Made by a program: the position numbers and the translations under genes. DNA of 64,000 bases from a virus, in the IMG/VR virus record IMGVR_UViG_3300036715_001290, positions 32,001-96,000 of that record; one strand, 5' to 3'. Numbering within the stretch: position 1 is the stretch's first letter; the number at the start of each line of letters is the position of its first letter. This document shows positions 3,784-49,937 of this stretch, in pieces. Below the pieces are notes generated by a model. The model saw nothing but the letters and a program-made list of their open reading frames with translations, was not told where the DNA came from and made no database searches.

Positions 3784-4281
3784 ATGAAATTATTGGAAGT
3801 ATCATTAATACAAAAGGCAGAACAATTTGCTAGAGAAGTACATACTGGACAGTTTAGAAAATCATCGATGAAACCTTACATTGTTCATCCATTATTAGTT
3901 TATAAACTAACAAAACATTTTGGTTTTGGTAAGAATGAACAAATAATTGCATTATTACATGATACATATGAAGATGGTGCAGATCCAAAAGCAATTGCCG
4001 ATTATATTGGTAAAACATTTGGTAGTAATATATTGTCTATTGTTTTACTATTATCACATGATAAATCGGTTGAATATAATACCTATTTATTAGCATTAGC
4101 AAAAAAATCACCATTTGCATTGAATGTTAAATTATGTGATATGATTGCAAATTTATCAGATGCACCAACACAAAGTCAATATAATAAATATAAGTCAGGA
4201 TTCATGAATTTGAAATCTAACAATATTTATATACAGGACAACTTACTAAAGACATTAAACAAGATTTTCAAATTAGGATAA
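3784..4281 (+). CDS. Stand-alone RelA/SpoT-type HD hydrolase (small alarmone hydrolase / Mesh1-like)
   Basis: H.GQFRK...PYIVHP, LLHDTYED and VKLCD...NL match the RSH hydrolase motifs; no synthetase domain. Confidence 0.85.
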   Translation: MKLLEVSLIQKAEQFAREVHTGQFRKSSMKPYIVHPLLVYKLTKHFGFGKNEQIIALLHDTYEDGADPKAIADYIGKTFGSNILSIVLLLSHDKSVEYNTYLLALAKKSPFALNVKLCDMIANLSDAPTQSQYNKYKSGFMNLKSNNIYIQDNLLKTLNKIFKLG

Positions 4282-4284
4282 TAC

Positions 4285-6090
4285 ATGAGTGTATTCAGCT
4301 CTATAAATAAACTTTTCAGTACCGACCTTATTATACGAAACTATAAGGGCGTAAACATGAAACCTATGGATGTTTACAACCCTAAAGTAGTTGGTAATAT
4401 GGCTAATAACTATATGGGTTCAAGATATCAAAATCTTTACTCAACATTAGCTATGGTTAATTCACAAAACCAAGGTATGCCAATTCATACTATGAGACTT
4501 ATGATGTTTAGAGATTATGAATTAATGGACCAAGATCCAATACTTCACTCTGCATTAGACTTATATTCTGAAGAATGTGCAATACGTAATGAATTTGGTG
4601 AAATAGTAAAAATAAAATGTGAAGATGAAGAAATTAATGAAGTACTTCATAATTTATTTTATAATGTATTAAATGTTAATTTTAATCTTAGATCATGGGT
4701 AAGATCATTTGTTAAGTATGGTGATTTCTTTATGAAATTAAACATAGTCGATAAATTAGGAATAGTTGATACCGTAACAATGTCACCATATGACGTAACT
4801 CGAGTTGAAGAAGTTAATAAATCAACTGGTAAAATAGATACTAAATATGCTATTGAAGGTTATAAATTCCGTGGTGAATTACAACCATATGAAATGGCTC
4901 ATTTTAGATTACAAAGTGATATTAACTTTTTACCTTATGGTAAATCCGCAATTGAAGGAGCACGTCGTGTTTGGAAACAATTAAACCTTGCTGAAGATGC
5001 AATGTTAATTCATCGTATTATTAGAGCTCCACAAAAAAGAGTATTTAGTATTGAGGTTGGTAACTTAAATGCAAATGAAGTTGACCCATACATGAAGAAC
5101 ATGATTAATAGTATGAAAAAAGTACCATTAATCGATGAACAAACTGGTGATTATAACTTAAAATATAATATACAAAATATTACTGAAGATTTTTATCTTC
5201 CTGTTAGAAATGGTGAAAGTGGTAATAAAATTGATACACTTGAAGCATTAGGTAATGAAACTATTGAAGATATTGAATATTTTAAGAATAAAATGTTTGC
5301 GGCATTACGTATACCTAAAGCATGGTTAGGTTTTGAAGAATCCGTTGGTTCTAAATCATTGCTTTCGGCTGAAGATGTTCGATTTGCTAGAACTATTGAA
5401 AATATGCAAGCAGTTATTGTTGGTGAATTAACAAAAATAGCAAAAATACATTTATTTGCTCAAGGATATAATGAAGATGATTTAGAATCATTTACCATTA
5501 GCTTAAATAGCCCATCTATAGTATATGAACAAGAAAAATTAGAATTATGGAAAGGCCGAATTGAATTAGCCGATAGTATACGTGCAGGTAAAATGTTATC
5601 TGAAAAATGGATATATGAAAACATATATCAAATGACATCTAATGAAATAGAATCACAAAAAGAAGAAGTACTTAATGATGCTCATAGAGATCATAGACTT
5701 ACTCAAATTGTTGAACAAGGAAATGATCCTAATGTTTCAGGTGAACATGCAACAGATACAACATCGAGAATAGTAAATAAACCCGATGATGTACAATACG
5801 CAGGTCCTACAGGCCGTGGGGGCGGTGTAGCATCACCTCAACTTAATCAAGGTGGAAAACCACAACCAGAAGGTGCACCCGTACAAAGAGGTTCTAATTA
5901 TGGTACTGATAAATCTACATTTGGTAGAGATGCATTAGGAAAGAATAAAGCTCCTGCAGGATTAGATAAATCTACAGGTTTAGACTTTAAAAACAATTCA
6001 CCTTTAGCTACTGAAGATGAATTTACCGAATTACACTTGACAGAAGAAGATGAAATTAAATTTGATGATAAAATGATAGATTTAATATGA
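4285..6090 (+). CDS. Portal protein (T4 gp20-like)
   Basis: KQLNLAEDAMLIHRIIRAPQKRVFSIEVGN, EDFYLPVR...IDTL and DIEYFKNKMFAALRIPK are gp20-type signatures. Confidence 0.95.
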   Translation: MSVFSSINKLFSTDLIIRNYKGVNMKPMDVYNPKVVGNMANNYMGSRYQNLYSTLAMVNSQNQGMPIHTMRLMMFRDYELMDQDPILHSALDLYSEECAIRNEFGEIVKIKCEDEEINEVLHNLFYNVLNVNFNLRSWVRSFVKYGDFFMKLNIVDKLGIVDTVTMSPYDVTRVEEVNKSTGKIDTKYAIEGYKFRGELQPYEMAHFRLQSDINFLPYGKSAIEGARRVWKQLNLAEDAMLIHRIIRAPQKRVFSIEVGNLNANEVDPYMKNMINSMKKVPLIDEQTGDYNLKYNIQNITEDFYLPVRNGESGNKIDTLEALGNETIEDIEYFKNKMFAALRIPKAWLGFEESVGSKSLLSAEDVRFARTIENMQAVIVGELTKIAKIHLFAQGYNEDDLESFTISLNSPSIVYEQEKLELWKGRIELADSIRAGKMLSEKWIYENIYQMTSNEIESQKEEVLNDAHRDHRLTQIVEQGNDPNVSGEHATDTTSRIVNKPDDVQYAGPTGRGGGVASPQLNQGGKPQPEGAPVQRGSNYGTDKSTFGRDALGKNKAPAGLDKSTGLDFKNNSPLATEDEFTELHLTEEDEIKFDDKMIDLI

Positions 6091-6148
6091 AAAATGATTG
6101 TTTTCTTAAATCTGTAATAATTATATTAAAAAAACGTTTGGAGATGTC

Positions 6149-7045
6149 TTGGTGAAAATCAAACACAATAAGTTAAAAAATACATACATATTATTTGAAT
6201 TACTTTCTCGTCAAATTGCGACCGATGCATTAAATGATATGCCGACGTCAAATGCAATTAATATTATAAAGAAACATTATTCAAAATCATCAGAATTGTT
6301 AAAAGAATATAATTTATACAAAAAATTATTAGAAACAAATTTTTCTGCCGAATCAAAAGCGCAAACTTATATTGATTTTGTTCTAAATGAAAGAAAGAAG
6401 CTAAATGCAGAATTACTTAGAACTGAAAAATACAATGTAGTAAATGAGATATCTAAACAATATGATATTAAAACACTATTTAATTCAAAAATAAGCAATT
6501 ATAAAGAATGTGCATCAATATATAAATTATTTGAATATGGTTGTTTAACCGAAGCTATACAAAATACTGAAGAATTAGTTGATTCTAGAGATAATATATT
6601 AAGTATAATAACAAATAAAAAAATTACAACTGAGACTTCAAACGTTGTTAATGAATTTATGTCACAAAGTAAAGACTTACGTGCATTATCATATAATATT
6701 TTGGTTGATAAATTCAATTCAAAATATGGCAAATCTTTAAACAAATCACAATGTGAAATACTTCGTACTTATTTATATAATGCTACCGATAGTATAGCAT
6801 TAAAAGAATACATTAATAAAAAAACCGAATCATATATTTTTAACATTAAAAAATTGTTAGAAATGCATGATGATAAAGTATTAAAAGCTAAACTGAGTGT
6901 TGTTTTGGAATCATTAGAAAAAATAACAAAACAACCAAAAATTAAAGAATCATATATTGTAGCTTTAATGGAAACATCCAATTTAATTGTTGAAATGAAA
7001 AAATCTCTTAAATTAAAACAAGTGGAAGTTGCCAATGATACCTAA
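6149..7045 (+). CDS. Helical head-assembly protein (prohead core-like)
   Basis: Lies between portal and protease; GGAG before a TTG start; several L/I-x-E sites. Confidence 0.45.
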   Translation: MVKIKHNKLKNTYILFELLSRQIATDALNDMPTSNAINIIKKHYSKSSELLKEYNLYKKLLETNFSAESKAQTYIDFVLNERKKLNAELLRTEKYNVVNEISKQYDIKTLFNSKISNYKECASIYKLFEYGCLTEAIQNTEELVDSRDNILSIITNKKITTETSNVVNEFMSQSKDLRALSYNILVDKFNSKYGKSLNKSQCEILRTYLYNATDSIALKEYINKKTESYIFNIKKLLEMHDDKVLKAKLSVVLESLEKITKQPKIKESYIVALMETSNLIVEMKKSLKLKQVEVANDT

Positions 7046-7208
7046 AAAAAATAAATCTTTAAAACGTCATGTTAAAACGTGTATAAAAGATCTACTTGAT
7101 GAAATGACTTCATCAGGAGCAGTTGGAGCATATTCTACTCCGTTTTTCATAAAACCAGATAAGACTAAAAAGAATAACATAGTACGTAGACGTATGACGG
7201 GTAAGTAA
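7035..7208 (+). CDS. Small 57-aa protein missing from the ORF track (MIPKKNKSLKRHVKTCIKDLLDEMTSSGAVGAYSTPFF...)
   Basis: Open from ATG 7035 to TAA 7208; fills the gap exactly and its stop overlaps the next ATG; contains an LLDE site. Confidence 0.7.
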   Translation: MIPKKNKSLKRHVKTCIKDLLDEMTSSGAVGAYSTPFFIKPDKTKKNNIVRRRMTGK

Positions 7209-7534
7209 TGGCTGAGGAAATTACAATTGATGAAAAAATAAGCAAGATGTATACAAACAGTAAATGTTCATATTGCGTTCTAAAATTAAATTTCAAAAAA
7301 TATAATCCGGATAATCCATTTTTTGATATAACCTTTAATAAGGGAGTAGATGGTCATCCAAAAACACAAATTTGTCAGTTTCCAGAAGGCGTTAAAACAA
7401 TTAATGATAGAGAAGCATACTTAAAAAAATTTAAGGATATGTTATATATTGAATTAATAGATTTATCAATTAAATATGATAATGAATTAAAGGAAAGATT
7501 AAAAGGAATAGAAACAAAATGTCTAACACAATAA
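7208..7534 (+). CDS. Hypothetical protein
   Basis: ORF coupled to its neighbours, phage-like codon usage. Confidence 0.6.
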   Translation: MAEEITIDEKISKMYTNSKCSYCVLKLNFKKYNPDNPFFDITFNKGVDGHPKTQICQFPEGVKTINDREAYLKKFKDMLYIELIDLSIKYDNELKERLKGIETKCLTQ

Positions 7535-7872
7535 AAATGATGAGCTTGCTTAAAGAAGCTCCAGAACGTAAAGCACCACTATTAAAGACAAGTTCTAATA
7601 TAAATTTTAAGAAACCTGAAGCTAATTGGTTATATGCCGATTGGATATCTGAAAAGAAACCAAACATGGGATTTAGTGTTGTAAAAGTTGGTGATAAAAC
7701 TATTTGTATAGCAGGTTCTGATTCAGGTAATAAAAAAGGTACAAGAGAAGATTATATTCATGACCAAAGTAGACGTCCAATTGGTATAGGTGTAACATTG
7801 GATTCTGCTAAAATAACAAATTTACACCCATTAGCACAATATGGTACATTACCATTGTTTGTATATAAATAA
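7519..7872 (+). CDS. Hypothetical protein, putative internal head protein
   Basis: N-terminal IKMMSLLKE-AP motif. Confidence 0.55.
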   Translation: MSNTIKMMSLLKEAPERKAPLLKTSSNINFKKPEANWLYADWISEKKPNMGFSVVKVGDKTICIAGSDSGNKKGTREDYIHDQSRRPIGIGVTLDSAKITNLHPLAQYGTLPLFVYK

Positions 7873-7883
7873 GAAAGTATATA

Positions 7884-8222
7884 ATGAAAATAATGAAATT
7901 ACTTGAAGCTAGCCCTATTGCTTTAACAGATGAGCAAAAAAATAAAATTAAAGCATTTGTAGATAAATTAAAAAAATATGGTGCAACAAAAGTAAAATAT
8001 GAAAAAGAATACCATGTAGTTATATGTGATTCATATAATGTATATTTTGGTAATAGTACATTTCGTCAACATGTATGTTCATGTTTTTCTAAAGAAGATG
8101 CAAACTATATAGCAGATGTCATAAATAAAAAATCAGCAGCCGCAAAGGAACCATCTTTAAAAGATAAAGCAACTATTAAATTAGATGATAGATTAACCTT
8201 TGATATGCATGATTTTGTATAA
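7884..8222 (+). CDS. Hypothetical protein, putative internal head protein
   Basis: N-terminal MKIMKLLE-AS motif. Confidence 0.55.
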   Translation: MKIMKLLEASPIALTDEQKNKIKAFVDKLKKYGATKVKYEKEYHVVICDSYNVYFGNSTFRQHVCSCFSKEDANYIADVINKKSAAAKEPSLKDKATIKLDDRLTFDMHDFV

Positions 8223-8230
8223 GGAATATA

Positions 8231-8866
8231 ATGGGTAATATAATTAAATATGATGCGGAACATCCTTTAATAGAAACAATAGGAACTATAACATATAAAG
8301 GCGATACTAAATTATTAACAGAATCAATGAGTACTGATGAACCTATATATGTAGATACATTATTGCAAATGGCTGATACTGAAAATGGTAATGGTAGGGA
8401 ATATCCTTATAATATTCTTAAACCATCAATAGATCGTTATGCAGCAAGATTTATTCCTAAAAGATCTTATGGTGAATTAGACCATCCTGATAGTGCAGAG
8501 CCTCCAGCATTACAACGTGCTTCTCATAGAATTGTAAAGATTTGGTGGGAAAATAAAATTGAATGTTACGGTCGTCTAAAGATTCTTAACACTCCCCTTG
8601 GAAAAATAGTAAAAATAATATTAGCCGAAGGAGGTGAAGTCGCAGTTTCCTCAAGAGGTGTAGGTTCTGTAGAAGAGTTAGGCTCTGGACTATATCGGGT
8701 TATGGATGATTTTGAAATGATATGTTGGGATATTGTTTCAAATCCATCAACAAAAGGTGCATGGGTACACGTGGTGAATGAAAATCAAAAAATTAATACA
8801 AATATCAATAAACAAAATACAAAGATTGATAATATCATTGGTGATATTTTATCATCATTAAATTAG
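8231..8866 (+). CDS. Prohead core protease (T4 gp21-like)
   Basis: NGNGREYP, GELDHP (catalytic His), VSSRGVGS (catalytic Ser), WDIVSNPS. Confidence 0.95.
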   Translation: MGNIIKYDAEHPLIETIGTITYKGDTKLLTESMSTDEPIYVDTLLQMADTENGNGREYPYNILKPSIDRYAARFIPKRSYGELDHPDSAEPPALQRASHRIVKIWWENKIECYGRLKILNTPLGKIVKIILAEGGEVAVSSRGVGSVEELGSGLYRVMDDFEMICWDIVSNPSTKGAWVHVVNENQKINTNINKQNTKIDNIIGDILSSLN

Positions 8867-8872
8867 GATTAT

Positions 8873-9331
8873 ATGAAATTAATAAATTTAATAAATGAAG
8901 ATTTGAAAGTTACATTAGATATTCCTAAAAATGATCCAAATTACTGGAATGGTAAAGGATTTTCAAATTATAGTACATCCGGAATTGAAACTATTGCAAA
9001 AGGCTTACATAATTATATAAATAAATTTTATAAAAAATATGCAGACAAAGATTTGGTTACTGACTTTAATGATATGCAATTAATGTTAAATGAAAAGGAT
9101 GATGTGATTAAAATAAAATTTGGCGTACAAATGTCATATAATATATTTAATCATGATGTACCATTACCGGTTAAAATATTTGTTAAATTATTAACTAAAC
9201 AAAATATACCATTTATTATTAAAAACGGTGAACATAAAAATTGGCGTGGTAAAGTAATTACCGAAAAATCAATTGATTTTATTACAATTAAAACTGACGA
9301 TTTCTTAAAAATTAAGACATCAAATTTATAA
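8873..9331 (+). CDS. Hypothetical protein, putative internal head protein
   Basis: N-terminal MKLINLINE-D motif; AGGA upstream. Confidence 0.55.
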   Translation: MKLINLINEDLKVTLDIPKNDPNYWNGKGFSNYSTSGIETIAKGLHNYINKFYKKYADKDLVTDFNDMQLMLNEKDDVIKIKFGVQMSYNIFNHDVPLPVKIFVKLLTKQNIPFIIKNGEHKNWRGKVITEKSIDFITIKTDDFLKIKTSNL

Positions 9332-9352
9332 TAACAAACAAAAGAGGTTCTA

Positions 9353-9568
9353 ATGGGTGCACATAATTATTCAAATGCCGGAGTTTTAGTAAAAAATGGC
9401 AATGTTGAAAAAGCACTATCTATATTCAAAAAAAGAATTAAAAATTGTGGTATCATGAACGAGTTAAAAGAAAGAACTCATTATATAAAACCATCGGCTA
9501 AAAAAAGAGCCGCTAAATTAACTATATTAAATAGAATTTCAAAAGAGAAAAAGACAGAAACACAATAA
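9353..9568 (+). CDS. rpsU: Phage-encoded ribosomal protein bS21
   Basis: V.VKNGNVEKALSIFKK...G.MNELKER.HYIKPS.KKR fits the bS21 pattern; 71 aa and basic. Confidence 0.9.
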   Translation: MGAHNYSNAGVLVKNGNVEKALSIFKKRIKNCGIMNELKERTHYIKPSAKKRAAKLTILNRISKEKKTETQ

Positions 9569-9603
9569 TTATTAATTATTGATAAACTATAAAGGATTTT
9601 TAA

Positions 9604-10152
9604 TTGATGAATGATAATATAATACAACCAACTGGTGATGATTGGAGCAAATGGGGTACATATGTTATAAATCAATTAAAGGAAAATCAAGAGTCTGTAA
9701 AGGATGTATCTAGTAAAATAAATGCAATTCATACTGATTTAGTTGATAGATTATCCGATAGTATTTCTCTAACTGAAAAGGACGTTGCTTCATCAATTCG
9801 TAACTTGGAAGAAAAAGTTGCAAAAATGATTGGTGAAATTGACTTTAAAATTAATACATCATTACAAAACATTCAAAATAAAAATGATAGAATGGTTGAT
9901 GAATTAAAACTTGAAGTTAAATCATTAAAAACGTTTGAAATGAGAGAAATGAACTCAACCATTAATAAGTTAACTGAACGTGTTAGTGGAATAGAATTAA
10001 GTTTAACAAAAGATATTAATAGCATTGATAAAGATGTTAATGGTCAAAAGAATTTTACTTTAGGTAAATCCGCTATTTGGGGTGCCATAATTACAATATC
10101 ATTAACATTATTAATGTCAGCTATAAATTTATTTGTTAAATTTGCAAAATAA
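9604..10152 (+). CDS. Coiled-coil protein with a C-terminal transmembrane helix (possible lysis or membrane protein)
   Basis: Long heptad region followed by hydrophobic AIWGAIITISLTLLMSAINLFV. Confidence 0.45.
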   Translation: MMNDNIIQPTGDDWSKWGTYVINQLKENQESVKDVSSKINAIHTDLVDRLSDSISLTEKDVASSIRNLEEKVAKMIGEIDFKINTSLQNIQNKNDRMVDELKLEVKSLKTFEMREMNSTINKLTERVSGIELSLTKDINSIDKDVNGQKNFTLGKSAIWGAIITISLTLLMSAINLFVKFAK

Positions 10153-10333
10153 ATATATAGAATAAATAGAATAAATAATTATTCTATATATTTATATAGA
10201 TACGAATCAAATCGAAAAATACATCATATATATGATGTCATACCAAAAATTAACTGCATTAAACTTCTAATAAGTTTAAAGATTAAATTCATTGTATTAA
10301 CATTATACAATTTTATTGAATTTAGGAGACCCT

Positions 10334-11440
10334 ATGAAAAACACGCTATTAAGAGATGCTATTGCTGATGCAAAGTTAGTGAAGAAACTAGCAATTGACC
10401 AAGCAAGAGAACGTCTTAACGAAGAATTAACTGGTAAAGTTAGAAAAATCGTATCTAAAAATTTGAATGAAGATGAAGATCTTGATTCTGAATTAAATAA
10501 AGATGATTTGGATGAAGCTTTTGAACCAGATGAAGATGACAATCTTGATGAAAATCTTAACGAAGATGACAATCTTGATGAAAATCTTAACGAAGGTGAC
10601 GAGCCTGACGAAGATAATCTTGATGAAGATTTAGATACAACAGATGATGACGAAGATGATCTTGATGATCTTGACGGAACATTTGATGATGAAAACGACA
10701 AGTTAGATGAAGGTACCGAACCTGATGCTGATGATGATATTACTGAAGGTGAAGATCATACTGAACCTGATGCTGATGATATTGATGAAGCATTGTTACC
10801 TGAAGATGAAGACTTTAGCGATCTTAACATCCCAGATGAAGATGAAACTAAAGATGATACTGATATTATGGCTGAACTTGATGCACTTGACCAAGACAAT
10901 GACGGAGACGTCGATGATGTAGATTCAACATTAGTTCCAGAATCTTCAGATGGTACTGGTGATGTAACGGCAGCTGCTGGTGATACTGAACCTGATGCAG
11001 ATGATCTTAAATCTAAATTAGAAGCTGTTGACAAACAACTTCAAGCAACGGTTAAAGAAAATATTAAATTGAAAAAAGCCCTTAAAATTCACGAGAATGC
11101 GGTAACGTATTTAAAGAAAGAATATGCTAAGGTTAACTTATTCAATAGCAAGCTTTATTACACAACCAAAGTATTAAAAGCTATTGGTCTTGATGAAGCA
11201 CAAAAACGTAATGTAATTGCAATGTATGATCGCGCTAATTCACTTCGTGAAGTTCGTTTGATACATGATACTGTTGTAAAGACATTAAACAAAATCAAAA
11301 CAAAAAATCTTTCAAAGATTGCTGAAAGCGCAGGCTCAAGTCGTTCAGTGAAAGTTGTTAATGGAAAGAAACGCGAAGTAATATTCGAAGATAAAAACCT
11401 TAACAGAATGAATCAATTAGCATTCAATGGTAAAAAATAA
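10334..11440 (+). CDS. Acidic prohead scaffold/core protein (gp22-like position)
   Basis: AGGAG before ATG 10334 (the track starts at TTG 10316); D/E-rich middle, coiled-coil C-terminus; directly upstream of the major capsid gene. Confidence 0.8.
   Translation: MKNTLLRDAIADAKLVKKLAIDQARERLNEELTGKVRKIVSKNLNEDEDLDSELNKDDLDEAFEPDEDDNLDENLNEDDNLDENLNEGDEPDEDNLDEDLDTTDDDEDDLDDLDGTFDDENDKLDEGTEPDADDDITEGEDHTEPDADDIDEALLPEDEDFSDLNIPDEDETKDDTDIMAELDALDQDNDGDVDDVDSTLVPESSDGTGDVTAAAGDTEPDADDLKSKLEAVDKQLQATVKENIKLKKALKIHENAVTYLKKEYAKVNLFNSKLYYTTKVLKAIGLDEAQKRNVIAMYDRANSLREVRLIHDTVVKTLNKIKTKNLSKIAESAGSSRSVKVVNGKKREVIFEDKNLNRMNQLAFNGKK
10532..10595 (+). repeat. 30-bp perfect tandem duplication in the scaffold gene (EDDNLDENLN x2)
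   Basis: GAAGATGACAATCTTGATGAAAATCTTAAC at 10532 and 10562. Confidence 0.9.
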
Positions 11441-11467: not shown

Positions 11468-13138
11468 ATGAAAAAAATAAAATATCAAAACTTGTTTGAA
11501 GGCCCAAGCTACGAAGAAAAGTTAGCTGTGTCTACTAAAGGACTTGTTGCGAAATGGCAAAAAACTGGACTTTTACGTGGTCTTAAGACTCAACGTGAAG
11601 TCTCTGCTATGAGCTTAGTTCTTGAAAATCAAGCAAAACAATTGGTTAAGGAATCTTCTTTAGTCAATGGCCCTGGTACTGAAGAGTGGAGTGGTATTGC
11701 ACTTCCATTAGTAAGACGTCTTATTGCTGATATCGCAGCACAAGAGTTCGTTTCAGTACAACCTATGGCTCAACCTAGCGGTCTTGTATTCTTCTTAGAC
11801 TTCAAGTACGGTAGCGGTGCTCAATTAGGCTTTACTCAAAACGCATCAATTTATGGTGGTGATAAAAATGCAGATGGTACTACAGGTTTATTCGGTCGTA
11901 CTAACTCAGCAACTGGTGGTCTTTACGGTGCTGGTCATTTTGCATATTCAATTAACAACTTCCAATCGGCTAGCTTAACAGCAACTGTAACAACTGGTAG
12001 TTGGATTGATGTTAACTTGTCAACTGCTTTAAGCGCATCAGCTGCTGTAAGTAACATTAAGAAATTAGCTGTTACCGCAGGTCCTGAAATTGACGTTTAT
12101 GCAGCACGTGCATTTAACCTTTCATCAGCAAACGCAACTAACGCGGCATTAGTATTCTATCACGACTATACAACTGTTAGTCAAAGTGGTGCTAATTATG
12201 TTGTAACATTTGTAGCCGACGCAACAGCAGCAACTGCTTTAGCAGCAGGTACAAACGCTTTAACACATGCATCTGCTTCAGCAGCATCAGCATGGACATT
12301 GGATTACGTAAAACAAACCACAGCTGATAACCGTGGTGATTTCGAAGATATTTCAGTTTCAGGTTCTTTTGTTGCTCTTGACATCCCTGAAGTTGACATT
12401 ATGATTAAATCTGAGACTGTAGTTGCTAAGACTCGTAAGATGAAGGCAGTATGGACTCAAGAAACCGTTCAAGATCTTCAAGCTTACCAAGCTGTTGATG
12501 CAGAAATGGAATTAACAAACATTCTTAATGAACACCTTGCTCAAGAAATTGACTTGGAAATCTTAGAAATGTTAATCCAAGCTGCTCCAACAATAGACTA
12601 TTGGTCAGCAAGAATCGGTTATGAGTACAATGCAGGTACAAAAACATTACAAAATAATGGTACCAATGCAATGGCTTATACACAACAAACATGGTTCCAA
12701 ACATTAGGTACAAAGATTACCAAGATGAGTAGCCGTATACATCAAAAAACATTACGTGGTGGTGCAAACTTCCTTGTATGTTCACCTGATGTTGCAACCA
12801 TCTTAGAATCTATCCCTGGTTATGCAACCGATGCAGCTGGTGATGAAAAAGAATTTGCTATGGGTATATCTCGTTCAAGTTCATTCAAATCACGCATCAA
12901 GATTTATAAGAACCCTTATTTCACAAATAACGTAATGTTACTTGGTTATAAAGGTACCAGTTTCTTCGAAAGTGGAGCTGCTTATTTACCTTACGTGCCT
13001 TTGATGAGCACACCTGTTATCTATGATCCTGTTACATTTACTCCACGTAAAGGTATCATGACAAGATATGCAAAGAAGGTTCTTCGTCCTGAGTTCTTCG
13101 GCTTAATTGGCGTAGAAGGTATCGACGTTGTATTCTAA
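11468..13138 (+). CDS. Major capsid protein (T4 gp23-like)
   Basis: LPLVRR, VSVQPMAQPSGLVF, AKTRKMKAVWT.E..QDL.A, EID.EIL, YLPYVPL, F.PRKGIMTRY; strong AGGAG and high-expression codon usage. Confidence 0.97.
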   Translation: MKKIKYQNLFEGPSYEEKLAVSTKGLVAKWQKTGLLRGLKTQREVSAMSLVLENQAKQLVKESSLVNGPGTEEWSGIALPLVRRLIADIAAQEFVSVQPMAQPSGLVFFLDFKYGSGAQLGFTQNASIYGGDKNADGTTGLFGRTNSATGGLYGAGHFAYSINNFQSASLTATVTTGSWIDVNLSTALSASAAVSNIKKLAVTAGPEIDVYAARAFNLSSANATNAALVFYHDYTTVSQSGANYVVTFVADATAATALAAGTNALTHASASAASAWTLDYVKQTTADNRGDFEDISVSGSFVALDIPEVDIMIKSETVVAKTRKMKAVWTQETVQDLQAYQAVDAEMELTNILNEHLAQEIDLEILEMLIQAAPTIDYWSARIGYEYNAGTKTLQNNGTNAMAYTQQTWFQTLGTKITKMSSRIHQKTLRGGANFLVCSPDVATILESIPGYATDAAGDEKEFAMGISRSSSFKSRIKIYKNPYFTNNVMLLGYKGTSFFESGAAYLPYVPLMSTPVIYDPVTFTPRKGIMTRYAKKVLRPEFFGLIGVEGIDVVF

Positions 13139-15154: not shown

Positions 15155-18100
15155 ATGTCTGATAGCATATTTTCAAAGTATTTTCTAAACAGTGCAGGTG
15201 AACCTGTGCCTAATTTAACAGTCAAACTAGTTCCACAAGCAAACGTAGGATTTGTAGGATCTATAACGTTAATAGAAGATCAATCGCGCCCAGGTTATTA
15301 TTACACAACATCTGCACCAACAGGTGAATATAGATTATATGTTAATAATGTACAATATGAACAACATATATGGCATGGTGATGATAAATTAACAAAAGTT
15401 GCAAGTTATTTTGATACTGATAATAATGCTATAATAATAAACAATGTTAATTTACTAAATTATAGTAGTTCAGGTTATACTAATGTTGTTAGTAAAAATG
15501 GATTTTTATATAATACATCAACCGAAAAGTATTTAGTACCTCCTACAAACATACCATTAACATATTTATCAGCTTCACAAGCAATATCAAGTGGTAGTTT
15601 GCAAACTGATTTAACATATTTTATTACTGATAGAAATGTATATTTGACCGCAAATTCAACATCATCATTTTCTGATTTTGGTTATTATTTATATCAACAT
15701 GGTCAAAAATCATGGGCTGCTCAAAAATTAACAGGTTCTAAATTTGATAATTGTACTGTTTATCAAAGTGGAAGTAATGCTAATGTAAATTCTGTTTATG
15801 TTGGTACCGCTAGCTTATTTAGTGGTAGCGTAGCATCGGTATTTTCTACACCATATTATATAAATAATAAACGATGGATAGAATATTTCCATGATGATTA
15901 TAAAATAAATTATGTTCCTGATAATAGTACTATAGCAACTATAGAAGCTATAGCTAATAATATTAATAAACATCAATCAAATTTTACTTCATATGCAGTT
16001 AATGATCATATTGTTTTACAATCATCAACTGAAGGAACATTACATAATGGTTCTTTAACACATGTCACAAAAACATCCGCATCATTATGTACAAATCCAA
16101 CATTTACATCATCGGCGACAACAATTACTCGTATGAATCATGGTACAAGTGTACCTAATTTTGGTAGATTATTTGAATGTAAATATAATTTTACATTAGA
16201 TAATTTGTATTCATTATATGATCCATTATATGATAATATGGTTGAACAAGATTTTAATTTTCAAAATACACCATCAAATATTCCTATAAGATATAAATCA
16301 TATACACATTCAGAAGCGAAATATACTTTTGAAGGTGATGTTAGAAATTATTTTAGAGTAAATGAAATAACTCGTGCGCATAACTTCAAACCTGATATAT
16401 ATAGAAAAGTTGTTATCAGCAATATTGTTTATTTTAATGGTGAAACATTAATAACAGTTAATGAAGATGCAACGCTAGCATTAGGTGGTACCGATGATGT
16501 AACTAATGGTGGTGAACTTTTAACATTAAATCCTAATGGAAATACTATATTAAATTTTAACTGGGATAATACTAATGTTACAAATAATAAAATTGTAAAC
16601 GCCGTTGTTAAAACAAATTTTATTGATAGTCAAAGTTACATTAAAAATAATAATATTTTTGGTGGAATATTTGGAAATAATATATTATTCTCAAAATCAA
16701 ACATTGAGAAATTAAATACTATTGATGCAAATATACAAAATAATATATTTCAAGTTGGTTCAGGTTTATATAATCTTACTATAAGTGGTGGAAATAAACG
16801 TTCACATAATTATGTAAATTCAATAATATCAAATAATAATTTTATTTCATATAGTAAGTTGTCAAATTTATCATTAACAAATGGTGAATGGATAATTTAT
16901 AATACCTTTTATAATACATCATATACAAATTCAAACTTAAATGGTAATACAAACATATTAAATAATGTTTTTGTATATACTAAACTTGATAAATTTGATA
17001 TGTCAGATCGTTCTACGATTGTTAATAATGATATTAATCATTGTATATTTTATAATACATCATTATCATATGATTCATTTATAAGTACCAATTTATTTAA
17101 TAAAACAACATTTCTAAATAATAAAACCTCACATTGTTTTATTATAGATAATATAATACATTATTTATTATGGAAAAATGATAATTCCGATGATATTAAA
17201 TGGAGAGATCTTCAAACATATGGTGCAGGTTTAGGTTTATATGAAGGTGGATGTGGTCAATTATTATCTACATTTCAAAAGAAAAGTCAAGGATTAACTA
17301 TAGGAACATCTATACAATTTAATAGTAGGTTGAATCCTATAGTTGGTAGCATATCATTTGATTATAAAATGAATGATGTATACATGTATGATACATCAAT
17401 ATATGCATGTGGTAATACAGGTTCCATTATATTAACAGAAAATACAGGTACATCTTGGACTACACAATCTGGAATTTCAACGGCTAATTTTAATAGTTTA
17501 GCAGTATTAGGTGGTGATAGTAAAATTTATGTTGTTGGTGATAGTAACACAATAATGACATCAACCGATCATACTAATTGGAATAATGTTGGTATACCAG
17601 ATGTTAACAGTTACCCAAGTAAATTAAATAAAATAAAATTTATAAATAAAGGTACTGGTTTTATAGTAGGTGATGGTGTTATATATAAAACAATAAATAC
17701 AGGTTCTACTTGGATTGCAAAATCATGGCCATATCAAATAGTTAACTATAACCCAAGACCACCATTTAAAGAATTAAAAAGTGTATATTTCTTAAATGAT
17801 AATGTTGGTTGGGCATGTGGTGTTGAAGGTATAATAGTTAAAACAATTGATGGTGGTGAAACATGGACGTCTCAAACATCAGGTACTACAAAAACAATAA
17901 ATGATATAGTTTTTTATGATAGTTCACATGGTGTTGCCATTTGTAATGATGGTATGGTATTAACGACATCATATGGTGGAAATAATTGGTCTTCACAAAC
18001 ACTAACACCAGTTAGTAATTTAACAAGTCTTAGTCGCAATGTTGATGGATTTTATATCATTACTGGTGATAATGGAAATGTATATGTTTCTGAAGATGGA

Positions 18101-20458: not shown

Positions 20459-20695
20459 ATGTTAAGTAAAGATACTATAATAAAAATTGCACATGAATGT
20501 GGAGTTGACCTTGATAAAGTTGGATATGACCAATTTGTTTTAGGATTAAAATCCGAAACTGAACATAAAAATATAGCTGATTTAATTACAAGTGATAAGT
20601 TAACACGATATGTAATTTATGGTATGATAGCGGCTGCACATTTTAAAGAAGATCCTAATTATTATCATAAATTATTAGCCGCAGGTTTATCATGA
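20459..20695 (+). CDS. DUF5661-like small phage protein
   Basis: G..SE.EH...IA.AH..EDPNYY.KL pattern. Confidence 0.6.
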   Translation: MLSKDTIIKIAHECGVDLDKVGYDQFVLGLKSETEHKNIADLITSDKLTRYVIYGMIAAAHFKEDPNYYHKLLAAGLS

Positions 20696-20960
20696 AAATG
20701 ATTGATTTATTAAATGAAATGCCTCATTTTATTTCACAAGGTAAAGGTATTGATTTAAGAATTGAAAAATATGATATATCGGATGAAGAAAAACGTAAGA
20801 TATTAATTGCATTTCAAAAAAATAATTTATATGGTTTTTCTGAAAAAACAATGTTTGGTATATTGTTAAACCTTTAGGTATGTTTAGAATTAATTCATCA
20901 AGAATACCACGTGGTGGTGTACAACTTCCTGATTATTGGGAAGCTTGGGTTCGTGTTTAA
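20692..20960 (+). pseudogene. Frameshift-interrupted gene, putative internal head protein
   Basis: ORF 20692-20877 starts MKMIDLLNE. The -1 frame is open 20844-20960 from an A6 run and reads NNVWYIVKPLGMFRINSSRIPRGGVQLPDYWEAWVRV. Confidence 0.55.
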
Positions 20961-28647: not shown

Positions 28648-28923
28648 ATGAAATTAACACAAGTTATACATAAAAGTCAATTAATAACTGAAGGATTATT
28701 GTCTAATTTTATTAGTAATCTTTTCTTTAAGGTTAATGGTAAAAGATTAGAAAAGGATTTAGCATCTTCCGATTTAGCATTGAAATATCCTGATGAAACT
28801 AAAAAGTTATTAGCATCAACAAAGAAATTACAAAGTGTTTTTGATACTTATAAAAATGAAATTGCAGCTGACCCAAAATTAGCAGAATTAGTAAGTAAGT
28901 TATCAAAAAAATGGGAAATATAA
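28648..28923 (+). CDS. Small protein before the tape measure gene, putative protease-processed virion protein
   Basis: MKLTQVIHKSQLITE-G N-terminus; AAGGA upstream. Confidence 0.55.
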   Translation: MKLTQVIHKSQLITEGLLSNFISNLFFKVNGKRLEKDLASSDLALKYPDETKKLLASTKKLQSVFDTYKNEIAADPKLAELVSKLSKKWEI

Positions 28924-43654: not shown

Positions 43655-43668
43655 GGTTCAAAAGGGTT

Positions 43669-45036: not shown

Positions 45037-45038
45037 TT

Positions 45039-45803
45039 ATGAAAAAGAAAAGGATAGTTTTTTGGAGCGGTGGATTGGATTCAACATATCTAATTCAAAA
45101 ATCTTTAGAAGAAGGATATCTTGTAACCGCATGTTATATTAATATTGAAAATAATACTAATAAAGTTGTACGAGAAAAAGAAGCAATTGAAAGATTATTA
45201 CCTCATTTTAATAAAAGTAAAAACTTTAATTATATTAATGAATTATTAAATGTTAATGTACATCCACAAGGTATAGTTTCATTTTATCAATTTCCAATAT
45301 TTATGCTAGGCATGATGTATTGTATGAATGAATATGATGAAATAGCATTGGCATATGTAATGAATGATGATTTTGTTTCATATCAAAATGAGGCAATAAA
45401 ATTGTTTAATGCTGCTAGGTTATTTTCAATAAGTGATCATAAATGTAAATTAGTATTTCCATTAATTAAAAAACATAAATTCAATATAATAGAATCATTA
45501 GATAATGATTTAATAAATTTAGTTACATTTTGTGAAAGTCAATATGCTAAGGATTTTTGTGGTACATGTACACCATGTAAAAAAATGAAAAGTGTTGATG
45601 AAAGATTATATAATACTTTACATGAAAAATATCATGATAACTTAGTTGTTAAAAATTTTACTGATAATGGTCATGGTGATGGTACTGAATGGGTTAATGA
45701 ACCAACGGAATCTGATGTTGAATTACTTAAAACTGTAATACATAAGAAAAATCACAGAAAAATCAAATCAAATAAAATGCCAACATCAAGTAAAAAAAGA
45801 TAG
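45039..45803 (+). CDS. QueC-like PP-loop ATPase (7-cyano-7-deazaguanine synthase family)
   Basis: WSGGLDST PP-loop and C-terminal Zn site C-x8-CGTCTPC. Confidence 0.75.
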   Translation: MKKKRIVFWSGGLDSTYLIQKSLEEGYLVTACYINIENNTNKVVREKEAIERLLPHFNKSKNFNYINELLNVNVHPQGIVSFYQFPIFMLGMMYCMNEYDEIALAYVMNDDFVSYQNEAIKLFNAARLFSISDHKCKLVFPLIKKHKFNIIESLDNDLINLVTFCESQYAKDFCGTCTPCKKMKSVDERLYNTLHEKYHDNLVVKNFTDNGHGDGTEWVNEPTESDVELLKTVIHKKNHRKIKSNKMPTSSKKR

Positions 45804-45876
45804 CGATAATGACAATGAATTACTTACAACATATTAACTGTTTATATTTATATTTTTTACATTATAAGGAAATTAT

Positions 45877-48000
45877 ATGACAGTTCAACCTATTGACTAT
45901 TTACAGGAAATTTCAAATTTTATATTTACGAGTAAATATGCTCGTTATGTTGATGAAAAAAAACAAAGAGAAACTTGGGAACAAGCAATAGATCGTAGCA
46001 TGAATATGCATCTAAAAAAATATTCATTTCTACCAAAGGAAGATTTGGATGAAATAGTATGGGCATTTTTACAAATGAAAATGTATAAAGTATGTTCATC
46101 TATGAGATCATTACAATTTGGTGGTGCTGCAATTGAAGCACATAATGCTAGAATATATAATTGTGCAGTACGCCATATAGATTCATTAAGATCATTTTCA
46201 GAAGTATTTTATTTATTACTTTGTGGTTGTGGTGTTGGTTTAGGTTTATCTGATTTATTTCTAAAGAGGTTACCTAATCTTGCAGGATCTGAAGATAAGA
46301 CAGGAACGGTATCGGTATATACTATTGATGATAGTATTGAAGGATGGGCAAATTCTGTTGAAGCATTATTAATGAGTTACTTTAAAAATACACCATTCAC
46401 TGGTAAAAAAATAGTTTTCGATTATTCAAAAATTCGTAAAAAAGGTGCAAAGTTAAAAACTGGTGGTGGTAAAGCACCTGGGTATGCAGGTCTTAAGAAA
46501 GCACATATTAAAATTAAAAAGATTTTAGATTTTATTATTGAAGAACAAGGTCAATATAGAATTAATAGTGTTAACTGTTATGATATATTAATGCATTGTG
46601 CAGATGCTGTTTTAAGTGGTGGTATTCGTAGAGCTGCAACATCAGTTATGTTTGCATTTGATGATTCAGGAATGATGAATGCAAAAATAAATGTTAAGGT
46701 ACATAAATATGGTTTATTTGAATTAGATACTAAGACAGGTAAATATGAAGGAAATGTTCATGTTAAAGATGAAACATATTTCAAATCACAAAGATATGAA
46801 GTACATTTAACCGAATGGGAATTGGGTAATCTTAAGGAAAATAATGAAGTAGGTTGGCATCATATTTATCCACAACGTGCACGTAGTAATAACAGTGTAT
46901 TATTTTTACGAGATAAAGTAACAAAGGAACAATTTACAGCAGCGGTACTTAATACAAAACAATGGGGTGAACCTGGGTTTGTGTTTGGTGATTTCTTAGA
47001 TATACTTTATAATCCTTGTTATGAAGTTGGTTTTAGACCTGTATTATCAAGTGGTGTCTGCGGTGTACAGTTTTGCAATTTAACTACTAAAAATGGTGCA
47101 TTAATTAAAACAGTTGAAGATTATTACACTGCATCAAAAGCAAGTGCTATCATTGGTACATTACAAGCAGGATATACTAATTTTCCATTTTTAGGACCTG
47201 CATCAAAAGAATTAACTGAAGATGAAGCATTATTAGGTTGTTCAATGACAGGTGTTATGGATAATCCTGATATTTTACTTAATCCTGAATATCAAAGAAA
47301 TGCCGCAAAAATAATAAAAGATACTAATAAATTATGGGCTAAGAAAATTGGTATTAATCAAGCTGCACGTGTTACTGTTGAAAAACCTGAAGGTACTTCA
47401 TCAATAGTTGTTAAATCAGCTAGTGGTATGGGTCCACATGAATCTCATAAATATATTCGTAGAGTTCAAATGAATAAAATGGATAATGTTTATAATCATT
47501 TCAAAAAATCAAACCCACATATGACAGAAGAATCCGTTTGGTCGGCTAATAAAACTGATGATGTTATATCGTTTCCTATTGTAGTACCTAAAACATCAAT
47601 GGTTAAAGCCGATTTAACAGCATTAAAACATTTAGAATATATTAAATCAACACAAATAAATTACATACTTGAAGGTGCAACAAAAAGAAATGTTAAAAAA
47701 ATATCAAATAATGTTAGTTGTACTGTAATTGTCGCTGATGATGAATGGAATGATGTTATTGATTATTTATATGATAACCGTAAGTATTTTTCAGCAGTAT
47801 CATTATTACCTAAAATGGGAAGTAAAATGTATCGTCAAGCACCTATGGAATCAATTGAAACATTAGAAGATGAAAAGATGTGGGATAAAATAGTTAAAAA
47901 TTATAAACATGTTGATTATTCAACAATGATTGAAAATTCAGATGAAACCAATATGATGGCTGAGGCAAGTTGTTATGGTGGTGCATGTAATATTGTTTAA
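45877..48000 (+). CDS. nrdJ: Class II (B12-dependent) ribonucleotide reductase
   Basis: RETWEQ, YNC, GCGVG, GGIRRAA, RARSNNS, GEPG, NPCYE, FCNLT, KPEGT and C-terminal CYGGAC. Confidence 0.9.
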   Translation: MTVQPIDYLQEISNFIFTSKYARYVDEKKQRETWEQAIDRSMNMHLKKYSFLPKEDLDEIVWAFLQMKMYKVCSSMRSLQFGGAAIEAHNARIYNCAVRHIDSLRSFSEVFYLLLCGCGVGLGLSDLFLKRLPNLAGSEDKTGTVSVYTIDDSIEGWANSVEALLMSYFKNTPFTGKKIVFDYSKIRKKGAKLKTGGGKAPGYAGLKKAHIKIKKILDFIIEEQGQYRINSVNCYDILMHCADAVLSGGIRRAATSVMFAFDDSGMMNAKINVKVHKYGLFELDTKTGKYEGNVHVKDETYFKSQRYEVHLTEWELGNLKENNEVGWHHIYPQRARSNNSVLFLRDKVTKEQFTAAVLNTKQWGEPGFVFGDFLDILYNPCYEVGFRPVLSSGVCGVQFCNLTTKNGALIKTVEDYYTASKASAIIGTLQAGYTNFPFLGPASKELTEDEALLGCSMTGVMDNPDILLNPEYQRNAAKIIKDTNKLWAKKIGINQAARVTVEKPEGTSSIVVKSASGMGPHESHKYIRRVQMNKMDNVYNHFKKSNPHMTEESVWSANKTDDVISFPIVVPKTSMVKADLTALKHLEYIKSTQINYILEGATKRNVKKISNNVSCTVIVADDEWNDVIDYLYDNRKYFSAVSLLPKMGSKMYRQAPMESIETLEDEKMWDKIVKNYKHVDYSTMIENSDETNMMAEASCYGGACNIV

Positions 48001-48019
48001 TTTTAGGAAAAACTAATAT

Positions 48020-48541
48020 ATGAAATTAATATGTTTATTAAATGAAAAAGAATCATATTGGTATTTAGGTTCAAATCCAACAGCCGATGCGGCCGTATTT
48101 AAGAAAGTTAATAATAATATATTATTATTATTGATTAAACGTAAAGGTGAAATTGAACATGGAAAGTGGGCACTCCCAGGTGGTTTTGTAGATACGCTTT
48201 CTAAAAAAGGTGAACCGTGGAAACAAGACAAAGAAACACCAAAACAAGCAATTATACGAGAATTAATAGAAGAAACAGGATTAAATATCTCAAATATTGC
48301 CAACATGTTGAAAAAAATAGGTACATATAAAGGACATAAAAGAGATCCAAGGGATAATGATAAAGGTTGGTCATTATCTAATGCATATGCAATATTATTA
48401 CCTAATGATTTTAATACATCAAATATAAATGCAAAAGATGATGCTAGTGAATTAAAGTGGTTTGATATTAAAAGTTTACCAAATTTGGCATTTGATCATA
48501 GTATTATTATAAAACATGCAATATCAAGAATATTTAGATGA
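48020..48541 (+). CDS. Nudix hydrolase, ADP-ribose pyrophosphatase (NrtR/NadM-Nudix)-like
   Basis: WALPGGFVD...ET...A..REL.EETGL Nudix box, RDPR, DDA...W....LP.LAFDH..II. Confidence 0.88.
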   Translation: MKLICLLNEKESYWYLGSNPTADAAVFKKVNNNILLLLIKRKGEIEHGKWALPGGFVDTLSKKGEPWKQDKETPKQAIIRELIEETGLNISNIANMLKKIGTYKGHKRDPRDNDKGWSLSNAYAILLPNDFNTSNINAKDDASELKWFDIKSLPNLAFDHSIIIKHAISRIFR

Positions 48542-48600
48542 AAATTATAATTACTTATATTTATTATTAAACACATTATTTCCCAAAAGAGGATATTATT

Positions 48601-49125
48601 ATGAAATTAAGTTCAGTTATAGCGGCTCCAGCCGTAATTCAAGAAGTCGCTAATGATTTTAAGAACATACCATTAAAAGGTAAAAAAACAAAAGTAGAAA
48701 TGTTTTGGGAATATAAATTATTACCTGCTACATTTGATATTGATTTTGGTTATAAAATTAATTTTGATAAAAAACAAGTAGATTATCATTTTGCATCAGC
48801 CGATGGTAAAATGGATACTGGTGGTATCTATTATGAAGTTGTTAAACCATATTTCTCAGAAAGAACCATTTTAACAAAAGCTAAAAATATTGGTATACCT
48901 GAATTTGTAGTTAAATATTGTAACTATGGTGGTGATAGTGATTTACATTCTATTAACATTAAACGTACATACGTATTTAACTTTTCACATACAATAACTT
49001 TTGAAGCAAAGGATTATAAAAAGACTTTTACAAAGGACCAAATAATGAAATTGGCTCAAGATTGGGTTAATAAAGCAGAGAATGTTTTATTTCCAGATAC
49101 CGATTTCTATAAAATAACAAAATAA
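48601..49125 (+). CDS. Hypothetical protein, putative internal head protein
   Basis: MKLSSVI...VIQE N-terminus. Confidence 0.5.
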   Translation: MKLSSVIAAPAVIQEVANDFKNIPLKGKKTKVEMFWEYKLLPATFDIDFGYKINFDKKQVDYHFASADGKMDTGGIYYEVVKPYFSERTILTKAKNIGIPEFVVKYCNYGGDSDLHSINIKRTYVFNFSHTITFEAKDYKKTFTKDQIMKLAQDWVNKAENVLFPDTDFYKITK

Positions 49126-49134
49126 GGAATCAAT

Positions 49135-49539
49135 ATGAAACTAAATAGCGTAATAAAAGAATATGGTATGAACAAAGATGTTCTTAAACCTGGGAAATCT
49201 TATAAAATAAAAACCGTAAAAAATGATTATGATTTATTTGTATTAGATGTAACGGTTGCTGGTCCTTGTTTGTACAAAGCAAATGAAGTTGCAGTTGTTG
49301 CTGATTTTTATGAAGTAACCGTAAGTGTATTTGATAAAGGTGGTCAAGAACAATTTTCACAAGAGACTGAGTTTGTAACACGAACAAAGTTAAAAGAAAC
49401 AAATGCAGGTGAAGTTGCAAAATTAATTGCAAATATAGCAGGTAATACTTTAAGTAAATTGGAAATGAATATTTCACGTACAGTTGATAATTTATTAACT
49501 ACAGATTTACCTAATAAAGCAAAGGCCGTTAAATTATGA
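49135..49539 (+). CDS. Hypothetical protein, putative internal head protein
   Basis: MKLNSVIKE N-terminus. Confidence 0.55.
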   Translation: MKLNSVIKEYGMNKDVLKPGKSYKIKTVKNDYDLFVLDVTVAGPCLYKANEVAVVADFYEVTVSVFDKGGQEQFSQETEFVTRTKLKETNAGEVAKLIANIAGNTLSKLEMNISRTVDNLLTTDLPNKAKAVKL

Positions 49540-49937
49540 AGTTAAATACACTCTTAAAAGAAGCACCTGTTGGTAAATTAACACCTTATAAAGGTAGTCA
49601 AATAACTGGTAATGATACATCTATAATGAAAGTTAAATCAGAATTGTTTTACGTTGGTGTTAAATTAAGTGTACCTTATACTGATGAAGCCGGTGATATA
49701 TATTATATATACTATGTTGAAATTCAAGATAAAGCTAAAAGTAAAACTGGTTGGTATATGCAAGAACGTTTGGTTGTAAAAATAACAAAAAAATATAAAG
49801 ACCAAAATGCATTAACTAAAAGAATAATAGAAATTGTATATGCTGAAATTAGAAAGCTTGAAAAATCTATTATTCCATTAGGTACACAATGTACAGAAAC
49901 TATAAAAGAACGTGTTAGTTTAATTAGTAATTCATAA
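49536..49937 (+). CDS. Hypothetical protein, putative internal head protein
   Basis: MKLNTLLKE-AP N-terminus. Confidence 0.55.
   Translation: MKLNTLLKEAPVGKLTPYKGSQITGNDTSIMKVKSELFYVGVKLSVPYTDEAGDIYYIYYVEIQDKAKSKTGWYMQERLVVKITKKYKDQNALTKRIIEIVYAEIRKLEKSIIPLGTQCTETIKERVSLISNS

Follow-up and report, generated by a model that had tools for sequence, protein, structure and literature searches.

Background

The capsid-targeting sequence (CTS) of the internal proteins of bacteriophage T4, reportedly described by Mullaney and Black in 1996, is the closest counterpart of the element considered here, a short N-terminal leader shared by otherwise unrelated proteins of an uncultured phage. These proteins are encoded in a 64,000-nucleotide stretch of DNA, hereafter referred to as the window, which comprises bases 32001-96000 of the single 140,489-bp contig IMGVR_UViG_3300036715_001290. 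In T4, the CTS has the sequence MKTYQEFIAE and is cut once by the prohead protease gp21, and the protein behind it remains in the head (PMC8442874). T4 proteins that are cut once beside the CTS are kept in the head and then injected, and the internal proteins (Ips) are highly basic (PMC8442874). Suppressor analysis has assigned targeting mainly to positions 4 and 7 of the CTS and processing to positions 8 and 10 (PMC9026906). The CTS of Ip1, Ip2 and Ip3 and its processing by gp21 have been reviewed repeatedly (PMC9026906, PMC3012670, PMC12373910). All three Ips inhibit GmrSD-type nucleases, they are unrelated to one another, and in related T-even phages at least ten different Ips have been identified from the signal sequence that they carry (PMC12373910).

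The T4 proteins gp24, gp67 and gp68 carry propeptides that are also gp21 substrates. The sites in the T4 record include the gp24 propeptide MAKINELLRE, MEGLIE in gp67, MLLIPE in gp68, MNEPQLLIE in gp21 and ...SFLTE65 in gp23. The gp24 propeptide is nearly identical to leaders of the window such as MKLINLINE and MKMIDLLNE. The T4 ADP-ribosyltransferase Alt is likewise an enzyme that travels in the head and is injected after trimming by gp21, but it is 682 residues long and also processed at its C-terminus (PMC9026906), whereas the enzymes behind the leaders described here are single-domain proteins of 128-173 residues. In the phages phiKZ, 201phi2-1 and SPN3US, a gp21-related protease also cuts after glutamate, and many head-internal proteins are processed and ejected (PMC5694885, PMC10052503). 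These giant phages differ in using (A/S/G)-x-E sites with a small residue at P3, where the leaders described here are hydrophobic, and in having propeptides of mostly about 80 to more than 100 residues, with no single short common leader (PMC5694885, PMC10052503).

Results

The ten N-termini that were quoted in an initial annotation of the window as a shared peptide all read as stated in the translations. Their nine-residue form is M-K-Φ-x-x-Φ-Φ-x-E (Φ, hydrophobic residue), in addition to which 13- and 15-residue variants occur. A strict pattern, ^MK[LIM]..[LIVM][LIVM].E, was found in 6 of 189 open reading frames (ORFs), compared to an expectation of 0.02 from within-protein shuffles of residues 2-30 and of 0.12 from column permutation, which retains the strong preference for lysine at position 2. 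Six occurrences were reached in none of 2000 trials of either kind, and at internal positions the strict-pattern 8-mer was found twice in about 43,000. When residues 2-9 of all 189 ORFs were clustered without a motif, at a BLOSUM62 score of at least 18, a single cluster with more than three members was obtained. It has seven, namely the ORFs starting at 8873, 20692, 48020, 48601, 49135 and 49536 and a minus-strand gene for a 2H phosphodiesterase beyond the end of the window. ORFs 28648 and 48601 have a 15-residue variant in common, MKL..VI....(L/V)I.E. ORFs 3784, 7519 and 7884 match the loose form only, and 3784 and 7884 match just its ending.

The proteins behind the leader, here called cargo, are unrelated to each other, as had been claimed, since the best pairwise BLASTP match among the candidates had an E-value of 0.37 after removal of the first 16 residues. 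A repeated DNA element was considered as the source of the likeness and rejected, as the DNA upstream of the tagged genes is dissimilar and the codon choice within the leader varies. Together with the unrelated bodies, these differences indicate that the common item is a peptide under selection and not a DNA repeat. The predicted mature proteins have an isoelectric point above 8.5 in 9 of 11 cases, compared to 37 % of size-matched ORFs (p 0.003).

The spacing Φ-x-x-Φ-Φ-x-E of the T4 CTS is found in six of these proteins as L3, L/V6, L/I7 and E9, shifted by one residue. As in the T4 system, an approximately ten-residue leader starting with M-K stands on otherwise unrelated, small proteins and ends in a gp21-type (L/I)-x-E site with identical spacing, a gp21-family protease gene lies beside the portal, scaffold and capsid genes, and the cargo genes include fast-evolving ORFans in what resembles an accessory island. 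There are also clear differences. The leader, MKLxxLLxE as opposed to MKTYQEFIAE, is one residue shorter, and 7 to 11 genes are tagged here and many more in relatives, compared to three in T4. Three of the cargoes are recognisable hydrolases (Nudix, HD_4 and 2H) and not nuclease inhibitors. The phage itself is distant from T4 (capsid E-value of 1e-23 to gp23), and its host is probably non-enterobacterial. Packaging and injection, established in T4, are predicted for this phage. No homology of the cargo to Ip1, Ip2 or Ip3 was found in Pfam and PHROG searches, but such homology is not required for the mechanism because the T4 Ips are themselves mutually unrelated.

The enzyme cargoes allow the leader to be compared with homologues that do not have it. 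The HD and Nudix proteins had been singled out as recognisable enzymes, and both assignments hold; the 2H enzyme outside the window is added to them. The Nudix hydrolase (48020-48541, plus strand; PF00293, E 3e-15) has the leader MKLICLLNE. Its nearest homologues start with MIKLKDLLIE.. or MIKLTE.., while more distant ones start with MTNSYYYKG.. or MTADEGFWYVG.., 2-5 residues before the conserved YWYxGxNPTxD. A check for the peptide in cellular homologues of both enzymes had been suggested. Cellular Nudix homologues are about 30 residues shorter, and more distant HD homologues start at the first helix. Among the phage matches of the Nudix protein are NadM-Nudix proteins, matched in their Nudix (ADP-ribose pyrophosphatase) half. 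A protease was not found in five Nudix-bearing contigs, which is non-diagnostic since these records are fragments of 17-64 % completeness. Separately, T4 CTS-like leaders such as MRSYEFIVE and MRATEFITE are present on other Nudix homologues (loci L091-L107), and the closest Nudix-type domain, with 40 % identity, lies near residue 1400 of proteins of about 3000 residues in two loci (L088, 2216-11311; L089, 5891-14947).

The HD_4 phosphohydrolase (3784-4281, plus strand; Pfam HD_4, E 2.8e-7; phrog_990, E 1e-26) has the short leader MKLLE and lies between the terminase and portal genes, an order that is kept in relatives. In all 27 viral homologues, the first helix is immediately preceded by a leader of 4-13 residues ending in [LIV]-x-E, as in MKINE|LS, MISIIKE|LS, MYNKIIKKIINE|LS and MIKLTLLIE|G.

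The eleventh leader-bearing gene, with MKLITLLKE, is located on the minus strand at 99517-99903 of the genome (window coordinate 67517-67903; L191:3517-3903), 3.5 kb past the window end. It is among the few minus-strand genes and adjoins genes for a deoxycytidine monophosphate deaminase and an exonuclease. Its product is a 2H cyclic phosphodiesterase (CPD) of the CNPase or tRNA-ligase CPD type. This identity is based on the invariant histidines of two H-x-T motifs and on structural matches to CNPase: in an alignment of 63 sequences H43 and H91 never vary and T45 and T93 hardly ever do, and the top Foldseek matches were CNPase catalytic domains (probability 1.00, template modelling (TM) score 0.6-0.7). 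The match to Pfam tRNA_lig_CPD was weak and below the cut-off (E 3e-4). In the AlphaFold2 (AF2) model, with a predicted local distance difference test score of 95, residues 1-13 are unstructured and lie outside the fold. Most stand-alone members among the 948 representatives of the family begin with MYTAxVLD and have no leader, while a minority has leaders such as MINLKHMVEE, MLKLTDLLQE, MIKLKDIVTE, MKHIKIFEDYLNE and even MKTYEAF... Tag-like ORFs near the 2H gene amount to about 13 % in loci with a leadered 2H protein and about 9 % in those without, a non-diagnostic difference. In larger relatives, the domain is fused to a CCA-adding enzyme and Acb1/LigT-like domains. Three such proteins of 1172-2235 residues (P0142, P0148 and P0238) combine a CCA-adding/poly(A) polymerase head with Acb1/LigT-like 2H and CPD-type 2H domains and look like RNA-end repair machines.

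For each of the three enzyme families, untagged homologues naturally begin no more than about three residues away from the predicted mature end. Judging from the tagged and untagged homologues and from the disorder in the AF2 model, the leader appears to be dispensable for the fold and movable between proteins.

The protease expected for such a system is encoded in the window, as initially proposed. The gene at 8231-8866 (plus strand) encodes a prohead maturation protease of the T4 gp21 family (Peptidase_S77; PF03420, E 2e-19; phrog_207, E 5e-41), which also matches the T4 gp21 structure 5jbl (E 1.8e-12). Its His/Ser/Asp triad (H85, S140 and D160/D167) is invariant in 30 relatives. The two sites noted earlier in the capsid protein and the one at the N-terminus of the protease are backed by conservation or by a parallel in T4. 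The protease site PLIE15|T parallels QLLIE9|T of T4 gp21. In the capsid protein, the mature N-terminus of T4 gp23 aligns near residues 49-62, and the column of QLVKE62 has the form Φ-Φ-x-E followed by a small residue, invariant in 32 relatives. This column is followed by a variable linker and then by the conserved EEWxGxALPLVRR, with the site 16 residues before ALPLVRR, and the capsid protein is predicted to be cleaved after QLVKE62 during maturation. Capsid proteins also start with a leader-like M...ΦΦxE, which here ends in NLFE11. The scaffold-like protein contains 20 [LIVM]-x-E sites (5.4 per 100 residues, compared to 7.8 in T4 gp22). The sites in the protease, capsid protein and scaffold are consistent with T4-like cutting after Φ-x-E. 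A complex prediction of the protease with the first 35 residues of the product of ORF 49536 had a score of 0.00, which is no verdict either way.

The use of such leaders extends to relatives of the phage. In 106 loci around protease or HD genes of relatives, comprising 1229 ORFs, N-terminal Φ..ΦΦ.E was present in 16.0 % of the ORFs, compared to 1.6 % in internal windows of the same proteins and 4-7 % in mixed viral contigs. Two dialects stand out, with M(I)KLKxLLxE found 40 times compared to 0.8 expected and MKKSELRxIIKEE found 41 times compared to 0.1 expected. The 81 strictly tagged ORFs of both dialects fall into 60 unrelated body families. In the relatives, tagged ORFs are mostly located in the interval from the portal gene to the capsid gene or else follow one another in tandem, as do six ORFs in a row in locus L188 (260-4250). 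Further dialects occur in Flavobacterium phage vB_FspM_immuto, a cultured relative with Flavobacterium sp. LMO8 as host: MENFDLKKFLVEN.. heads four to five of its proteins and MKKQILSEQF.RMQ.LAGIITES heads two, and the families MKKSxLxxIIKE.. and MIKLIDLLTES are also present among its ORFs. By eye, the HD leader tends to follow the local dialect, with MIKL.. in L188, MKK.. in L167 and MKL.. here.

The remaining leader-bearing proteins of the window are all encoded on the plus strand. Three of them surround the protease gene. The first is a 117-residue protein (7519-7872) with the leader MSNTIKMMSLLKE, in which the motif occupies residues 7-13 and whose gene has the position of T4 gene 67/68. 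The second, of 112 residues (7884-8222; MKIMKLLE), is encoded directly upstream of the protease gene in synteny with T4, and the third, of 152 residues (8873-9331), has the canonical leader MKLINLINE and is encoded directly downstream. No significant family match was found for these three in Pfam and PHROGs. A 61-residue protein (20692-20877; MKMIDLLNE) is encoded upstream of a gene resembling a head-tail adaptor, and its homologue in locus L170 has 47.7 % identity and the N-terminus MKKKIPLLESIIRN. A 91-residue protein (28648-28923) with the 15-residue leader variant MKLTQVIHKSQLITE is encoded in the tail/baseplate module.

Four tagged genes form a block at 48020-49937, with the Nudix gene first. 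It is followed by genes for a 174-residue ORFan with the 15-residue leader MKLSSVIAAPAVIQE (48601-49125) and for two proteins without an assigned function, one of 134 residues (49135-49539; MKLNSVIKE) and one of 133 residues (49536-49937; MKLNTLLKE). The product of ORF 48601 is the sole member of its family among 5.8 billion proteins. For ORFs 49135 and 49536, Pfam, PHROGs and Protein Atlas were uninformative, the latter returning unnamed clusters with low TM scores. A BLASTP comparison of the 11 candidates with the ORFs of immuto and of 80 protease loci gave nothing at an E-value of 1e-3, and the L170 homologue of ORF 20692 was found in a later comparison. The lack of informative relatives for ORFs 48601, 49135 and 49536 matches the fast turnover of the T4 ip genes. 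The block resembles an accessory island, and late expression does not follow from its location.

The source of the window is an uncultured, distant T4-like phage with 28 % G+C and nearly all genes on one strand. The capsid protein has 51 % identity to that of immuto and 46 % to that of a Microcystis phage. A near-identical phage record was not found, and a megablast search with the first 25 kb of the window against phage records gave no match. The head module begins with the large terminase gene (2166-3782), the HD gene, the portal gene (4285-6090) and a gene for a conserved 298-residue protein (6149-7045). It continues with the small ORFs 7208, 7519 and 7884, the protease gene, ORF 8873, a gene for a ribosomal protein S21 homologue (9353-9568) and ORF 9604. 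It ends with the genes for an acid-rich, scaffold-like protein (10334-11440, plus strand; start at 10316 or 10334), which has homologues at the same position in relatives, and for the gp23-like major capsid protein (11468-13138, plus strand; T4 gp23 structures, E 1e-23). This order mirrors the T4 order 20-67-68-21-22-23.

Several further observations were made in the head modules. The S21 homologue (phrog_21469, E 8e-12; plus strand), encoded between the protease and scaffold genes, is found at the matching place in relatives (L172, 20157-20426; L177, 13920-14138). The N-terminus MGKHNYNNG of a 124-residue ORF elsewhere in the genome (114071-114445) resembles its MGAHNYSNAG. The 298-residue protein (plus strand), which starts with MVKIKHNKLKNTYILFELL.., is encoded after the portal gene in every relative examined and has no family assignment, and its N-terminus is highly conserved (MKIKHSKFKNTGLIYELL..). 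In locus L188 (14363-17250), the large terminase gene is interrupted by an ORF of 281 residues (15211-16056), and in locus L167 (7245-9998) the large terminase has 917 residues compared to the usual length of about 530. The split and the long terminase suggest mobile insertions, either a homing endonuclease or an intein.

Discussion

By analogy to T4, the shared N-terminus is probably a CTS-like capsid address that is removed by the prohead protease, a reading to which a probability of about 0.6 can be given. The proposal of a portable, T4-CTS-like leader acting with a gp21-type protease was made in the initial annotation, and it is supported by the geometry of the leader, the protease, the capsid site, the homologues and the use throughout the clade. 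It is less secure for ORFs 7519, 7884 and 8873, which may encode core proteins. If the leader acts as in T4, the hydrophobic positions 3 and 6 (4 and 7 in the T4 CTS) would dock the protein onto the scaffolding core during prohead assembly. After closure of the shell, the protease would cut after the glutamate, with positions 7 and 9 serving in recognition as positions 8 and 10 do in T4. In T4, a change of this glutamate to aspartate abolishes processing and leaves targeting intact. The leader and scaffold fragments would then exit the head, while the mature proteins would be retained together with the DNA and pass into the host at infection. The Nudix, HD and 2H enzymes would then act as soon as they arrive, ahead of any phage gene expression.

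Several points weigh against this reading. The strict pattern was written after the data had been seen, and the motif-free clustering was added for this reason. The loose criterion, a hydrophobic-x-Glu site in the first 16 residues, shows no enrichment in this genome, with 46 observed and 36 expected. Thus, of the prediction that the motif is commoner than in shuffled sequences, only the part concerning the strict form, which is far commoner, is confirmed. Since the loose criterion is not enriched, KDLLDE in ORF 7029 and YDFLNE in ORF 37607, which had been listed as related sites, are at chance level and carry no weight. The tagged ORFs of relatives are no more basic than untagged ones (p 0.19). 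The late-promoter motif TATAAATA has 32 copies on the plus strand and 58 on the minus strand, with 6 plus-strand copies at most 60 nt from a gene start, and in this genome motif scan T4-type late promoters were not associated with the tagged genes, a result that is uninformative for timing.

The location of some genes also fits poorly. ORF 28648 is flanked by a baseplate-hub gene and a 758-residue tail-module gene, and the four-gene block lies between ribonucleotide reductase and helicase genes and therefore in the replication module, outside the head module. ORFs 7519, 7884 and 8873 are located where T4 has the prohead-core genes 67 and 68, and for this reason they may be core proteins. This is probable for 7519 and 7884, and all three are as likely to be core components that are later degraded as they are to be injected effectors. 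A virion proteome was not found for any relative, the phage is uncultured, and packaging, cleavage and ejection rest on analogy. Finally, the N-termini of the large terminases of the clade are conserved as (S)LKEIIxEEYxxC, with the same Φ..ΦΦ.E spacing as the leaders (L167, L172, L177, L180 and L181), and the terminase of the window contains TIKELMAEEF. The large terminase is not expected inside the head.

The terminases indicate that the pattern may mark a more general docking helix. According to this alternative, the N-terminus would be an uncleaved amphipathic helix for another partner, such as the portal or terminase, a chaperonin, the membrane, or a replication or nucleotide-metabolism complex, and not a capsid address. 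Besides the terminase N-termini, it would account for the tagged block among replication genes and for the mild enrichment of N-terminal Φ..ΦΦ.E in mixed viral contigs (4-7 % compared to about 2 % internally). However, it does not account for a motif that always ends in a glutamate at the domain boundary, for a Φ-Φ-x-E without exception at the capsid maturation site of 32 relatives, for a leader that is unstructured and stands apart from the fold, or for a spacing identical to the one mapped by experiment in the T4 CTS (PMC9026906). A docking helix is therefore considered unlikely, although it is the alternative that survives best.

Another alternative, which is slightly less probable still, is that the leader is a propeptide of prohead-core and assembly proteins only. 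The cargo would then be degraded, parked in an inactive state or released in the producing cell, and nothing would be delivered to the next host. ORFs 7519, 7884 and 8873 flank the protease gene at the place of the T4 core genes, the tagged ORFs of relatives lie mostly between the portal and capsid genes, and the T4 core proteins gp67, gp68 and gp22 also start with L-x-E sites and are degraded (PMC5694885). On the other hand, the internal [LIVM]-x-E density of the three proteins encoded beside the protease is 0.9-2.0 per 100 residues, compared to 5.4 in the scaffold. An assembly role is not obvious for Nudix, HD and 2H enzymes, whose leaders precede intact catalytic domains with just one leader-proximal site, and T4 proteins that are cut once in this way remain in the head and are injected (PMC8442874).

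A purely compositional origin, in which AT-rich Lys, Leu, Ile and Asn codons and common MK- starts produce the pattern by chance or through selection on translation initiation, is very improbable, since in spite of the 28 % G+C content, lysine as the commonest second residue (39 of 189 ORFs), MKL as the commonest start and the lack of enrichment of the loose motif, the column permutation keeps the position-specific composition and still yields 0.12 expected versus 6 observed occurrences, initiation does not explain Glu9 and the hydrophobic pair at positions 6-7, codon choice differs among the leaders, and homologues in other phages bear different leader sequences with the same ending.

Under the reading as a capsid address, the proposed mechanism is already known as the T4 CTS/gp21 system. 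New are the different leader sequence in a very distant T4-like clade, the much larger number of genes and the presence of hydrolases of three superfamilies among the cargo. Because three of the tagged proteins are small nucleotide-cleaving enzymes, the phage may deliver ready-made enzymes together with its DNA. An anti-defence role of the cargo is an inference only. As a matter of speculation, the enzymes could destroy nucleotide alarm or immune signals or repair RNA ends, and it is equally speculative that the ORFan cargo inhibits nucleases attacking modified DNA, as T4 Ip1-3 do. A tentative and more far-reaching possibility, which is rather unlikely to hold in full, is that dozens of interchangeable proteins are loaded into the capsids of this whole aquatic T4-like clade by a modular leader code tuned to each lineage, among them a Nudix hydrolase of the ADP-ribose pyrophosphatase type and SpoT-like HD and 2H hydrolases, which are injected to pre-empt host nucleotide signalling or to repair cleaved RNA. 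To our knowledge, pre-emptive enzymatic counter-defence of this kind has been described for no phage, and we know of enzymes that cleave signalling nucleotides only as early-expressed phage proteins.

Should the leader function as in T4, reading N-termini would be enough to list the proteins that a large group of uncultured phages injects. This injected proteome would in turn be a catalogue of candidate host-takeover and anti-defence proteins. The leader and the protease may also provide a protein-packaging handle in phages of non-enterobacterial hosts, as the CTS does for T4. For the infection itself, delivery of pre-made enzymes would leave signalling-based immunity no time to act.

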